Shown here: positions 28,543-33,280 of the stretch, piece after piece
How positions within the stretch are numbered: the stretch's first letter is position 1
Layout: every line of letters begins with the position of its first letter
Source: an uncultured Dehalococcoidia bacterium
Lineage (GTDB): Bacteria > Chloroflexota > Dehalococcoidia > Lucifugimonadales > UBA3495
Reading direction: 5' to 3'
NCBI GenBank assembly: GCA_950072105.1
Contig: CATMOE010000022.1
Location: 1-51,462, forward strand
Length of the DNA: 51,462 nt
Program-made: the position numbers and the translations under genes
The notes under the pieces: model-generated
What the model was told of the DNA's origin: nothing
The model's database searches: none
The model's input: the letters and a program-made list of their open reading frames with translations, nothing else

Positions 28543-29135
28543 ATGGCTGAAGTCAAGAAAAAGATCCTGGTTATCGACGACGATGACGACATCCGCCTTT
28601 TTGTGTCAACCCGTTTGGAACGAGCCGGGTATAACACTGTCGTCGCGGCCGGGAGATGTCCAACTTGCCGGTTTTGATGTTGACGGCGGCGGCCCTAGAA
28701 AGAGACAAAGTTAGAGGATTGAGGGGAGGCGCGGACGACTATATCACCAAGCCGTTCTCAAGCGAAGAGTTTCTCGCTCGCGTCGAGACATCCCTCCGGC
28801 GAGCCTCGATAACTCCTGAGGGTTCGGAAAGCTTGGTATACCAGGATGCCGAAATAACCATCGACTATCCCAGACACAAAGTGGCCGTGCGAGGGCAGAC
28901 GATTGAACTTACGCCAACGGAGTTCCGCCTTCTGGCTACCCTAACGGAGAACGCGGGCCGGGTGCTGAGCCAAGATCAGTTGCTGGACCGCGTATGGGGA
29001 CAGGATTACGTCGAATCCGCTGATGTAGTCCGCCTGTACGTGGGATATCTTCGCCGGAAGATAGAACTTGACCCCAGCAGTCCCAAACTTATCGAGACTA
29101 GCAGGGGCTTCGGCTACCGGTACCGGAAGCCCTAA
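28543..29135 (+). pseudogene. OmpR-family response regulator with internal deletion/frameshift
   Basis: MAEVKKKILVIDDDDDIRLFVSTRLERAGYNTVVA joins out of frame to REMSNLPVLMLTA...GADDYITKPF...RGFGY; the phospho-acceptor segment is missing. Confidence 0.85.
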
Positions 29136-30474: not shown

Positions 30475-30714
30475 CTAACCCGCCGCGAGTGCCGACAGAC
30501 GCTCACTGCGATGCCGCCGCCAAAAACGCTGCAACGCTACCAACGCCCACAAGGTTTCGATGACCGTGATGGGGTAGGCCGCGACCAGGCCGCTGTAGGC
30601 GGCGGTGAGGGCTGATCCACCGGCGAATATCAGCACCATCCACTTGGACCGGGGCTCCAGCCAGTAAGCCAAAAACATGATGGATACGGCAATGACGCCG
30701 AACACTGTCAGCAT
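30475..30714 (-). CDS. Small three-helix membrane protein
   Basis: 79 aa, hydrophobic; AGGAGG RBS; directly downstream of the UU gene. Confidence 0.75.
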   Translation of the reverse strand: MLTVFGVIAVSIMFLAYWLEPRSKWMVLIFAGGSALTAAYSGLVAAYPITVIETLWALVALQRFWRRHRSERLSALAAG

Positions 30715-30751
30715 CTATACCTCCTAAGCATCGAGCAATTGATCGGGGCGT

Positions 30752-31093
30752 TTAAATGGGGCTCATTCCGAATACGCCGGTGAATCGAAGGGTCCAGAGA
30801 GAAACTGCCAGCGCCGTCGATATCATCAGCATCGTGAAGGAACGGCGGCTCCATGTAGAGCGCCGCCACCTCTTCCAGCTAGCGACTTCAAGATACCAAC
30901 CCCTGCTGAGCATGATCAGTGTGACCGCTAGGAAGGGCCACGTAAGCGCCTGCAACGCAGGCGCCGTGGCCAGCCCGGCCGGGGCGCCGCCCAGGAGGCC
31001 GAGCAAGCCAGGAACCACTCATCACCAGGGTAACGGCAGCAGACCGCTCAACAGGGCGACAAAGGGTTTTTCAACGTGGATGAACTTTTGCAT
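30752..31093 (-). CDS. MerT-like membrane protein, predicted selenoprotein with tandem Sec-Sec (W-U-U)
   Basis: AGGAG RBS, ATG 31093, MQKFIHVEKPFVALLSGLLPLPW-TGA-TGA-VVPGLLGLLGG...WPFLAVTLIMLSRGWYL; the TGA pair (31019-31024) sits where MerT has the TM1 Cys-Cys. Confidence 0.75.
30967..31010 (-). promoter_or_regulatory. Candidate bacterial SECIS for the UU gene
   Basis: TGGC-tt-GCTCGGCC-tcct-GGGC-[GGC]-GCCC-c-GGCCGGGC-tg-GCCA; G-starting loop 30 nt after the second UGA. Confidence 0.55.
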
Positions 31094-31267
31094 ATGGAGT
31101 GCTCCTGAGGTGAGACCAAATTTTGGAACCTATGCTTTACCGGGCCAAACAGGCGTTAGGGAAGTATTCGGTTGTCAGGCAACCAAAGCCACTTGCGAGC
31201 GTTGCATTCTCTTAGGCCCTCGTCATGGATCCTCAGATAGGATTGCCATCTATCGGCCTCGGTTCTA

Positions 31268-31385
31268 TGTCATTCCGACACCAGCCCTTCCGCTGAAGGG
31301 CGGCGAGGAATCTCAGGCCTGGATTTAGCGGTCACTTGAGATTCCTCGCTACGCTCGGAATGACAGAGGGGCGCTCGAAATGACA
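31268..31385. repeat. REP-like/miniature inverted-repeat element (GTCATTCCGA...GCGAGGAATCT type)
   Basis: TGTCATTCCGA/TCGGAATGACA terminal inverted repeats, internal GCGAGGAATCTCA/TGAGATTCCTCGC, extra partial end. Confidence 0.75.
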
Positions 31386-31412: not shown

Positions 31413-32450
31413 CTATCCGCCGCTCCAGATGATTTCTTTGGTGACCGACTTGGTGTTGCCGCCGAAGGTCGGTATCCATGACGAGTGTTTGCCCGGTCCC
31501 CCAAGTACGATGACGACCAGATCATCTAGGGTGCGGATCATGGGAATCGGACCGTCCGGGATGCGCTGCATCCGTTCCATCAGGGTATCGTGGGTGTAAC
31601 GTTCCAGGGGGATCTTGGCCCGTTGGTGCAGCCATTCGACGACATCTTTCTTGCTTAACCCGTCGCCGCTGATGGTGGCGGCGTGTTCCGGACCAAGGGC
31701 CAATAGGGTTTCACCGCCCGTGTAGGCGTTGTTGGCGCCGGTTACGGATATCGCTCCCGCCACGATGGTGAGGATATCATCGGCCGAACGGCCCGAATGG
31801 TCGTTGATGTTGTGAGGTGGTTCCCCGGCCATCACCGTTACAGCGCTTTGGTCCGGACGGAAACCTCGCTCAACATGTAGAGGTTCCCACGGATTCTCTT
31901 CCTCGTTCTCCGCCACGCAGTAGCTGAATTTGGAAGGAGCGCCTTGGGTGGACATGTCGCCCACCCCGGGGTAAGCCCCACCAACATTTAACAGGACCAA
32001 GCGCATGGCCCGGCCAATGGTCGCGTTGGCTCGCCAACCCGGCCCGAACGACCCAGATGAGTAGTTCATACCCAGGGCCTCCCTGATGGGGCCATTGATT
32101 ATCATAAGGGGGGCGCAGGGATGGGTAGTGGCCTGAATGGCGTAAAGATTGAAGACCGGGTCCGCGATCGCTTCCACGGCGGCGATCAACACCGGCAGGT
32201 ATTCGGGGAGGCATCCGGCCATCACGGCATTGATGGCCAGCTTTTCCACCGTGGCCGCGCCCCAAATGGGAGGAATCTCGGCTACCACGTGGTCTGAGGC
32301 CAGGCTGGTGGCGGCCAACATTGCCTCGACTCGTTGCAGCGTCGGCGGCACTATCGGCAGTCCGTCGGACCAGCCACGGTCCAAGTAAAGGCGCTGTACC
32401 GCCTCGAAATCGTCGGCGATCTCTATCTGCGGCGAAACTAACGATGGCAA
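31413..32450 (-). CDS. Conserved hypothetical protein of the type I recall beside UGSC-family genes
   Basis: GWSDGLPIVPPT, TVEKLAINAVMAGC, NATIGRA, ENEEENPW motifs; GGAGG RBS before TTG. Confidence 0.8.
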   Translation of the reverse strand: MPSLVSPQIEIADDFEAVQRLYLDRGWSDGLPIVPPTLQRVEAMLAATSLASDHVVAEIPPIWGAATVEKLAINAVMAGCLPEYLPVLIAAVEAIADPVFNLYAIQATTHPCAPLMIINGPIREALGMNYSSGSFGPGWRANATIGRAMRLVLLNVGGAYPGVGDMSTQGAPSKFSYCVAENEEENPWEPLHVERGFRPDQSAVTVMAGEPPHNINDHSGRSADDILTIVAGAISVTGANNAYTGGETLLALGPEHAATISGDGLSKKDVVEWLHQRAKIPLERYTHDTLMERMQRIPDGPIPMIRTLDDLVVIVLGGPGKHSSWIPTFGGNTKSVTKEIIWSGG

Positions 32451-32670: not shown

Positions 32671-33219
32671 TTACTCCTGAGCAGTTAAACCAGCGATCAC
32701 CTGCTCCAAAAGGGCCTCCGCCTTGGCCTCAACCGCATCGGGTTTTAGGCCTCCAAGTGGATGGAGAGCGATGGCCATGGGCAATTCGGGCATTCCCAGG
32801 GCGCGGCGCTCGACTTCGCCCAGGACCTTGAATCGGTGGGTGCAAACTGTAACAGTGGGAACACCGCGACGCTCCAGTTCTACTGAGTCGTGGATACTCC
32901 ACGACGTGCAGGACCCTCAATCACCTAGACCGACGATCGCTACATGGGCTGAGGTGGTCAACTCGTCCATGACCTCCTGCTTGGCCGCGATCGACGCCGA
33001 GGGTTTGCGCTGGTGGACGGCGTTGCTGATCTCATATTTCTGGCGGAGCAACTCCTCCAACCGGGCGAAGAGAATGTCGCCGTTGGGTTTACTGTTCCAA
33101 AGAAAGCCTACGGATCTGCCCCGAAGATCGGGTGGCCGTGGCGCCATGGTGTGCCGCAATTCTCGAGGCGGAGCGGTGGGGTCCAAAACAAAGATGGAGC
33201 CGGTTGCCGTGGTGGTCAT
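32671..33219 (-). CDS. UGSC-family selenoprotein (182 aa, Sec at in-frame TGA 32917-32919)
   Basis: MTTTATGSIFVLDPT...NSKPNGD...[30 protein letters not shown]...HPLGGL...TAQE*; frame stays open across the TGA; GGAG RBS. Confidence 0.92.
32880..32911 (-). promoter_or_regulatory. Bacterial SECIS element of the UGSC gene
   Basis: CTGC-ac-GTCGTGGA-[GTA]-TCCACGAC-tca-GTAG; perfect 8-bp upper stem, G-starting loop 19 nt after the UGA. Confidence 0.75.
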
Positions 33220-33280
33220 TATGTCGCTCCAATCGTTCCGGTGGGCCGGAACCATTTATAGCTGGAACACTTATAGGGAG

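Follow-up and report, generated by a model that had tools for sequence, protein, structure and literature searches.

A MerT-like membrane protein gene of Dehalococcoidia with two adjacent in-frame UGA codons, predicted to encode a vicinal selenocysteine pair

Analysis of a 51,462-nucleotide stretch of DNA from an uncultured Dehalococcoidia bacterium (contig CATMOE010000022.1 of assembly GCA_950072105.1, here called the window) identified a gene at 30752..31093 on the minus strand that very probably encodes a real protein of the MerT superfamily in which two adjacent selenocysteines (Sec) stand in place of a vicinal cysteine pair. The UGA pair is conserved, the reading frame is coding on both sides of it, RNA structures are conserved downstream, the genome holds the Sec machinery, the protein family is homologous to MerT, and some of its members have mer genes as neighbours. 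The gene, referred to below as the Sec-Sec gene, starts with ATG at 31093-31091, 8 nucleotides (nt) downstream of an AGGAG ribosome-binding site (31102..31106), and its codon 23 is TGG (W23, 31027-31025). The adjacent in-frame TGA TGA (31019..31024) comprises a first TGA at 31024-31022 and a second at 31021-31019, followed by 88 sense codons and a TAA stop at 30754-30752. With TGA read as Sec, the product is a membrane selenoprotein of 113 residues running from M1 through W23-U24-U25 to I113, with zero Cys codons. An earlier note on this DNA, made from the letters alone, had described this layout of AGGAG, ATG, 23 codons, TGA TGA and 88 further codons for a 113-residue protein free of Cys, and all of it was borne out on the minus strand. 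The coordinates given there are exact, while the strand is minus and a plus-strand reading of 30752-31093, which yields a nonsense translation, is meaningless. The gene is present as a single copy in its own genome, with no paralog, and was found full length in 33 other loci, most of which also show a purine-rich stretch 5′ of the start.

These 33 loci were collected in a scan of one genome per species and all come from metagenome-assembled genomes (MAGs) of Chloroflexota, Dehalococcoidia or SAR202; together with the window they provide 34 copies. TGG-TGA-TGA occurs at the same site in all 34, and neither TGC nor TGT is found at either TGA position in any of them. Protein identity among the copies ranges from 47 to 96%, so the TGA pair has been kept across a wide divergence. 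Synonymous sites around the pair are near saturation (pS, the synonymous differences per site, of 0.57 to 0.70), and the retention of TGG-TGA-TGA is therefore beyond chance, as had been proposed when two chance nonsense changes at exactly these codons were called unlikely. The same data dispose of the idea that the gene is a pseudogene or a sequencing or assembly artefact, in which a dead Cys-Cys gene would have suffered two nonsense changes. This explanation can draw on one copy (L047) that appears frameshifted after residue 75; it is refuted by the recurrence of TGA TGA in 34 independent assemblies and in four RNA-library assemblies and by purifying selection on both sides of the pair, and its probability is negligible. 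The L047 gene (3998-4329) is the second Sec-Sec gene copy of one MAG and keeps TGG TGA TGA, with the frame changing after about residue 75; this copy is either frameshifted or misassembled. The Sec-Sec gene occurs twice in each of four MAGs (L031/L039, L037/L049, L046/L047, and L051/L052).

The coding frame extends across both TGA codons. Approximately 23 residues 5′ of the pair are conserved (consensus xEKPFVALLSGLLPLPW), while the synonymous positions of their codons vary freely. The uncorrected ratio of nonsynonymous to synonymous differences per site (pN/pS) is 0.39 over the 16 codons before the pair and 0.38 over the 50 codons after it; read in its two other frames, the upstream part gives 0.68 and 2.6. 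The equal ratios on the two sides indicate a single frame under protein-level selection across both TGAs. The earlier note had considered that homology might begin only after the TGAs; instead, the N-terminal 23 residues are conserved in the 33 loci with a similar pN/pS, and a profile alignment with a related Cys-Cys family (described below) runs from residue 12. TGA has not been reassigned to a sense codon, as the Sec-Sec gene itself ends with TGA in 8 of the 33 loci, the remainder having TAA (11) or TAG (14).

Public databases mostly represent the family as if a shorter gene began downstream of the TGAs. A word-based search of 5.8 billion proteins returned 17 relatives, of which 15 are 83 to 100 residues long and begin at or just after the codon 3′ of the second TGA. 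The other two are full length and read PLPWWWVVPG, the TGAs having been called as Trp by the gene caller. The expectation that gene callers miss this arrangement thus proved right, and it matters for annotation that the entries of a whole family are truncated (15/17) or mistranslated with Trp (2/17). Taken at face value, the truncated entries would support a two-gene model, with a 23-codon leader ending in a tandem UGA UGA stop and a separate 88-residue protein translated from the next GTG. That codon does follow the TGA pair in 18 of the 34 copies; the others have GTC, GTA, GTT, ATC, or ATT, so that 16 of 34 copies have no ATG, GTG, or TTG after the pair with which a separate downstream gene could start, and no ribosome-binding site is found there. 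The 23 upstream codons are in frame in all 34 copies and conserved as protein at nearly the same pN/pS, homology to the Cys-Cys family and to MerT runs through the site, and the shorter product would be left with half of helix 1 and without the metal site. We consider two separate genes very improbable.

The host genome (4.08 Mb in 164 contigs, 92% complete) is equipped to decode UGA as Sec. It encodes selB (352 bits against a cut-off of 242), selA (550 bits), a tRNA-Sec with anticodon tca, and a selD (385 bits) that has an in-frame TGA of its own, which settles the question, raised earlier, of whether the genome might lack selB or selC. At least 16 other genes have an in-frame TGA, and 12 UGSC-family and 3 SelW-like matches contain exactly one TGA each. 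One of the UGSC-family genes lies in the window at 32671-33255 on the minus strand, with a single in-frame TGA (GDUGSC) and scores of 176 bits for Pfam PF24696 and 135 bits for NCBIfam NF041046 (cut-off 125); the clear selenoprotein reported 1.6 kb upstream in the earlier note is thereby confirmed. The 12 genes of this family in the genome include those at C73:11840-12274 and C1:157809-158243. A selB match above the cut-off was also found in four of five other genomes carrying the Sec-Sec gene.

The UGAs could still be read as something other than, or not only, Sec, namely as Cys through the Sec machinery at low selenium, as Trp by a near-cognate tRNA, or as a mixture of Sec and Cys. The sequence of a gene cannot separate Sec from Cys at a UGA, and one relative (P0032, reading PLPWCW) may be a Cys-Sec form. 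A full Sec pathway and at least 16 further genes with in-frame TGA stand on the other side, as do TGA stops of the same gene in 8 of 33 loci, hairpins specific to the UGA-bearing family, and the absence of TGC and TGT from both positions in all 34 copies, which would be unexpected if Cys could do the same work there. Read-through by these other routes is accordingly rated improbable, if less so than a split into two genes.

Conserved RNA structure follows the UGA pair. An ungapped alignment of 93 nt from the Trp codon in the 34 sequences was analyzed with RNAalifold and gave two hairpins, both on the minus strand. Hairpin H1 (30968..31009; columns 19-30 with 49-60) begins 9 nt after the second TGA, spans 42 nt, and has a lower stem of 11 pairs plus one U.U, while its upper part, which is variable in amino acids, still pairs when each homolog is folded singly. 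Hairpin H2 (30946..30964; columns 64-71 with 75-82) is an 8-base-pair (bp) stem with a GUU triloop. Standard pairs fill 95.1% of the 627 cells of H1 and H2, compared with 34 to 50% when the 3′ partners were slid by 1 to 3 columns, and none of 500 column shuffles reached 95.1%. Pair 69:77 of H2, which joins the third base of a Pro codon to the second base of an Arg/Gln codon, covaries (C-G in 18 rows, U-A in 12, U-G in 1, and unpaired in 2). Codon choice within the stems is strongly restricted: Leu is TTG in 34/34 cases, Arg CGG in 20/20, and Val GTG in 29/30, and in H1 the third bases of Gly and Ala codons are confined to those that preserve pairing, whereas Gly, Leu, and Arg codons elsewhere use 4 to 6 codons each. 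Synonymous choice is likewise narrowed at codons +6 to +9 and +16 to +19, within H1. As a control, the same pairing mask was applied to 36 loci of Cys-Cys homologs (31 distinct sequences), in which only 44.7% of the cells pair (45.5% for the H1 columns). The difference between 95.1% and 44.7% shows that the hairpins accompany the UGAs rather than the protein sequence. The earlier note had expected a single SECIS-like hairpin (SECIS, selenocysteine insertion sequence); conserved structure is present, in the form of two hairpins rather than one.

Which of the hairpins would recruit SelB can be judged against the other selenoprotein genes of the genome. Seven of the 12 UGSC genes have a perfect 6- to 9-bp stem with a G-U-N triloop (GUG, GUA, GUU, or GUC) located 13 to 16 nt from the U of UGA, and three more show the same motif of stem and G-U-N triloop in their sequence, so that most UGSC SECIS elements of this genome are of one unusually uniform type. 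The UGSC gene in the window conforms to it (8-bp stem, GUA loop, beginning 14 nt from the U of UGA), and in selD an 8-bp stem begins at 22 nt and is closed by a GGU loop. H2 is of the same build as the SECIS of the UGSC genes. Several points nevertheless count on the other side. H2 begins 57 nt from the second UGA, a much longer distance than is usual in bacteria. Of the 34 copies, four have a UUU loop and one a CUU loop in H2, which weighs against binding of SelB by this hairpin. Folded singly, the G+C-rich window sequence 3′ of the UGAs has an energy no lower than that of shuffled sequences (z = -0.66), and the case for RNA structure therefore rests on the comparison across homologs. An Rfam scan gave no SECIS-type match, the only hit being a chance-level one to CcsR1 (19 bits against a gathering score of 65).

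The spacing of H2 becomes normal for this genome if H1 is folded, as the path from the second UGA to H2 then measures 15 nt. Loose rules for bacterial SECIS elements place the apical loop 16 to 37 nt from the UGA with a G at its start; H1 alone fits these rules, and its apical loops often begin with G. Judged from sequence alone, H1 may be the SECIS, H2 may be the SECIS with H1 as a spacer, or both may be in use, with SelB binding predicted in each case. We also offer a more elaborate scheme, which is speculative and rather unlikely to hold in all its parts. In it, the two hairpins would form a composite SECIS in which H1 folds away as a 42-nt spacer and leaves H2, with its GUN triloop, effectively 15 nt from the second UGA, or each hairpin would load its own SelB complex for successive Sec residues. 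The resulting membrane-embedded diselenol would provide a very-high-affinity entry for Hg(II) in deep-ocean Chloroflexota, within a largely selenium-based mer pathway composed of Grx(Sec), MerA, MerT(Sec-Sec), and an extracytoplasmic redoxin(Sec) keeping the pair reduced.

The protein itself was placed by profile comparison. A Pfam scan of the window protein found no family, and its best NCBIfam match had an E value of 0.01; 31 full-length Sec-Sec members were also scanned as a set. The MerTP fusion model NF033556 matches 28 of the 31 (best E value, 2.1e-4), merT_RC607 (NF033560) matches 2, and NF045683, a MerT/CopZ fusion-like selenoprotein model, matches 3 with E values of 0.055 or higher. 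A profile of the same members searched against 1.84 billion representative proteins gave 39 matches at E values of ≤0.001, and 21 of these were examined in sequence. Thirteen are proteins of about 100 residues that read (S/A)(L/I/V)PWCC, and one (P0053; profile E value, 5.5e-4) is a MerT-HMA (MerTP) fusion that passes the Pfam MerT model and scores 162 bits on MerTP. Two read WWW, which corresponds to UU called as Trp, and two are fragments without the site. The PLPWCW of P0032 would fit a Cys followed by a Sec under the same calling of TGA as Trp, and P0049, which reads CHYCGDE, appears to result from translating TGG-TGA-TGA with a shift of one base. When the 15 Cys-homolog proteins (the 13 PWCC proteins, P0053, and P0032) were scanned, merT_RC607 matched 12 of the PWCC proteins over nearly the whole model length (best E value, 3.4e-9), and P0053 matches as well. 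PWCC is also found at the site in 36 metagenome loci.

Alignment of profiles with hhalign joined the Sec-Sec family to the PWCC family (probability, 99.5%; E value, 2e-22; 35% identity) and to annotated plasmid MerT and MerTP proteins (probability, 95.7%; E value, 9.4e-9). The latter alignment covers 78 columns and each of the three helices, and it sets U24-U25 on Cys24-Cys25, which are invariant in the MerT and MerTP set; the PWCC family aligned with MerT at a probability of 96.6%. In a comparison of 44 Sec-Sec and Cys-Cys sequences, no columns are invariant except P22, W23, and both Cys/Sec positions. The earlier note had placed the Sec pair on the vicinal Cys site of MerT and had asked whether relatives might have residues other than Cys there. 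The placement is supported by the alignment of U-U on C-C, and the 13 PWCC relatives have Cys-Cys at the site. AlphaFold2 predicts helices at residues 10-18, 26-35, 44-71, and 80-107 with a nonhelical break around LPLPWUU, and the loop at 69-85 contains seven Arg/Lys, a composition that fits a cytoplasmic loop as read from the sequence. A profile search of PDB sequences returned no matches at E values of ≤10.

Gene neighbourhoods link part of the family to mercury. In three loci, the next gene upstream on the same strand encodes MerA (L029, 494 bits; L032, 517 bits; L054, 532 bits; TIGR02053 cut-off, 454), and in L041 a cut-short frame in the MerA position scores 427 bits, below the cut-off. 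A MerR-family metal regulator is found upstream in 5 of the 33 loci (L031, L032, L037, L050, and L054). In L032 (1802-5231), a SAR202 MAG contig, a merR-type regulator is followed in one operon by a glutaredoxin (U-H-F-C), merA, the Sec-Sec gene, and a Redoxin/AhpC-type protein (U-P-T-C). This operon comprises three selenoprotein genes, its redoxin is lipoprotein-like, and a similar arrangement occurs in L029. The two halves of the L032 redoxin correspond to separate neighbour families, found with 5 and 4 of 34 sequences compared. PWCC genes have a MerR-type regulator, detected by tblastn, in 18 of 36 loci, mostly just upstream, and adjoin HMA-domain, NHL-repeat, and MetA-like (outer-membrane) proteins; one of them also has a heavy-metal P-type ATPase as a neighbour.

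A number of observations weigh against reading the gene as a selenium-containing MerT that carries mercury. Pfam MerT (PF02411) matches none of the 31 Sec-Sec members, and all NCBIfam MerT matches are far below their cut-offs, with the window protein scoring 15.5 bits on MerTP against 180. The second, cytoplasmic Cys pair of MerT is absent, its C76/C82 segment being a gap in the alignment, because the Sec-Sec protein has no Cys at all; the PWCC family likewise lacks that pair. At the position of the Sec pair, one of the matched proteins (P0028) has PWPAW and so neither Cys nor Sec. The AlphaFold2 models are weak, with mean predicted local distance difference test scores of 59.8 (31 sequences) and 64.2 (44 sequences). 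Among the five homolog-bearing genomes, one has only a 182-bit selB match, below the cut-off. The neighbours of the gene in the window are not mer genes (an amidohydrolase, the UGSC pair, a hydrolase, and a 79-residue protein), its own genome, which is 92% complete, has no MerA above the cut-off (best score, 387 bits against 454), and merA adjoins the Sec-Sec gene in only 4 of the 33 loci even with the L041 frame included. No merP adjoins the gene in the window.

In terms of classification, the term "MerT-like" used in the earlier note holds for profile homology with U-U on C-C, and it has to be qualified to a distant relationship below curated MerT thresholds. By those thresholds the protein is not a member of MerT, and the description that fits its sequence best is a Sec-Sec variant among the MerT-like selenoproteins, beside an unnamed PWCC family. 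The reading of the site as one that binds metal, mercury in particular, finds backing in the mer genes beside relatives and none in the window itself. Hg(II) is the probable substrate on balance, though with appreciable doubt. A real Sec-Sec membrane protein could instead handle another soft metal or a metalloid (Cu, Ag, Cd, or selenide) or transfer reducing equivalents across the membrane, an alternative that otherwise overlaps with the explanation favoured here. The lack of merA above the cut-off in the own genome makes another soft metal or a redox role more plausible, and the lack of mer neighbours in the window points the same way. The regulators near Sec-Sec genes score similarly with ZntR, CadR, CueR, and MerR models, the Cys-Cys family lies near metal genes of a generic kind (HMA proteins and a P-type ATPase), and redoxin and glutaredoxin selenoproteins are among the neighbours. 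These points are set against the three loci with MerA above the equivalog cut-off directly upstream, together with a fourth, cut-short frame in the same place, and against the fact that the only named families matched more than sporadically are mercury transporters (MerTP in 28/31 members, RC607 in 12/15 Cys homologs, and the MerT/CopZ selenoprotein model). We judge a substrate other than mercury to be the less likely alternative.

Collectively, we favour a mechanism in which the Sec-Sec gene encodes a three-helix inner-membrane protein whose helix 1 would have its vicinal Cys-Cys replaced by adjacent Sec-Sec. The ribosome would read UGA-UGA as Sec-Sec by means of SelB and Sec-tRNA(Sec), and SelB would be recruited by the conserved RNA structure within 80 nt 3′ of the UGAs, H1 followed by H2. 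By analogy with MerT, the diselenol at the break in helix 1 would accept a thiophilic metal ion on the outer side, Hg(II) being the likeliest, and pass it inward. We infer from the comparisons above that Sec is actually inserted at UGA-UGA and that one of the hairpins binds SelB, and likewise the substrate and the direction of transport.

The distribution of the gene is patchy, and it is not a core gene of the lineage: a sample of 401 genomes of the class yielded it in four, one of them the own genome. Exactly two TGAs are present in three of these matches, and the fourth (G332) holds further stops. Sequencing runs that contain the window stretch are labelled marine or seawater metagenome, and six marine metatranscriptome runs contain 26 to 63% of the sampled words of the stretch. 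Contigs of four marine RNA libraries span the whole Sec-Sec gene (e.g., 30634-31298 in X14 and 30607-31147 in X15), with no variant listed at 31019-31024 in the four libraries, and one contig (X14 record 2) spans both the Sec-Sec gene and the gene for the 79-residue protein. Contigs from RNA libraries may contain DNA and show neither strand nor level, a point to be counted with those raised above, and because of this possible DNA carry-over they give weak support for transcription.

The 79-residue protein is encoded at 30475..30714 on the minus strand, 37 nt downstream of the Sec-Sec gene and with a GGAGG of its own; it is a two-helix membrane protein with no family match and is probably co-transcribed with the Sec-Sec gene. 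A relative was detected by tblastn in 6 of the 33 loci, adjoining the Sec-Sec gene in five and lying about 2.4 kb upstream in L029. On the other side of the Sec-Sec gene, a 345-residue protein (31413..32450, minus strand), for which library scans found no Pfam or NCBIfam family, is paired with the UGSC protein, and this gene pair occurs upstream of the Sec-Sec gene in 5 of the 33 loci. In L053 (204-1835), and also in L055 and L057, a UGSC domain and a homolog of the 345-residue protein share one frame when the TGA is read through, with a length of 544 residues in L053. This type of fusion may be the 'UGSC + Unknown_1' fusion mentioned in PMC2398784.

Two further features of the window stand apart from the Sec-Sec gene. 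The intergenic region between the 345-residue protein gene and the Sec-Sec gene contains, at 31263-31317, a dispersed repeat of about 46 to 50 nt with an internal palindrome (CCCTTCCGCTGAAGGG). The repeat has 28 blastn matches in the own genome at 88 to 100% identity, and its depth in the four marine RNA libraries is 84 to 394, compared with about 6 to 10 in the flanks, with many contigs joining unrelated sequence. It could be a repetitive extragenic palindrome (REP)-like element or an abundant small RNA. At 28543-29135 on the plus strand, an OmpR/PhoB-type response regulator is split: the first 44 receiver residues (MAEVKKKILVIDDDDD...) are encoded in the frame 28543-28677, and the receiver from position 70 onwards is encoded with the DNA-binding domain in another frame at 28635-29135. 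About 30 receiver residues appear to be missing, by a frameshift, a deletion, or an assembly error.

MerT-like selenoproteins are known in print only with a single Sec, and the Sec-Sec form is new. A search of the full-text literature, with subscription papers and supplements outside its scope, found no description of adjacent or vicinal Sec or of tandem UGA in a bacterial protein, and a full-text search found no literature on SAR202 selenoproteins. Table 1 of a 2026 review (PMC13188914) lists 119 families, in which proteins with several Sec have UxxU, UxxxxU, or two separate motifs and none in that table has UU. Adjacent Sec residues would require the bacterial ribosome and SelB to recode two stop codons in a row. 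The 34 natural examples, with their conserved RNA structure, bear on whether one SECIS can serve two codons and on the spacing that SelB tolerates, and the family allows metal capture by a vicinal diselenol to be compared with that by the dithiol of classical MerT. The carriers are SAR202 and other Dehalococcoidia MAGs, and the stretch is found in marine runs, which gives the family a bearing on mercury cycling.

Among known systems, the MerT proteins of the Tn21/Tn501 type (PF02411, NF010314) resemble the Sec-Sec protein in their size of about 115 residues, in having a vicinal pair of soft-metal ligands that x-x-Pro follows in helix 1, and in the Arg-rich loop that precedes helix 3; the Sec-Sec protein is predicted to share their three membrane helices. 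They differ in having Cys-Cys instead of Sec-Sec and a second cytoplasmic Cys pair, and identity over the aligned columns is 18%. The best-scoring named models are NF033560 (merT_RC607, Gram-positive type) and NF033556 (MerTP), whose cut-offs of 130 and 180 bits are not reached, and unlike MerTP the Sec-Sec protein has no fused HMA domain. Selenoproteins of the MerT type have been described, including a 'putative mercuric transport protein' with PF02411, a C/SxxU motif, and one Sec (ABB16073.1; PMC1976440, PMC2398784, and PMC13188914), a small MerT group with a CU motif, e.g., WP_250634603.1, in which Sec occupies the second position of the vicinal pair (bioRxiv 10.1101/2022.07.06.499078), and the MerT/CopZ fusion-like selenoprotein of NF045683. 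These proteins have one Sec, which sets them apart from a family with two adjacent Sec and no Cys. Metal-binding selenoproteins with two Sec are represented in Table 1 of PMC13188914 by the UxxU HMA type (NF041115), MbdU, and TsoB (UxxxxU); as given in that table, they are bacterial proteins that use two Sec as a metal-binding or redox pair, as predicted for the Sec-Sec protein, and they differ from it in that the Sec residues are 2 to 4 residues apart and lie in soluble domains of a different fold. The closest relatives remain the LPWCC proteins of about 100 residues (P0035-P0057, L062-L097), which have the same predicted three-helix layout as the Sec-Sec family and differ from it in having Cys-Cys and neither H1 nor H2.

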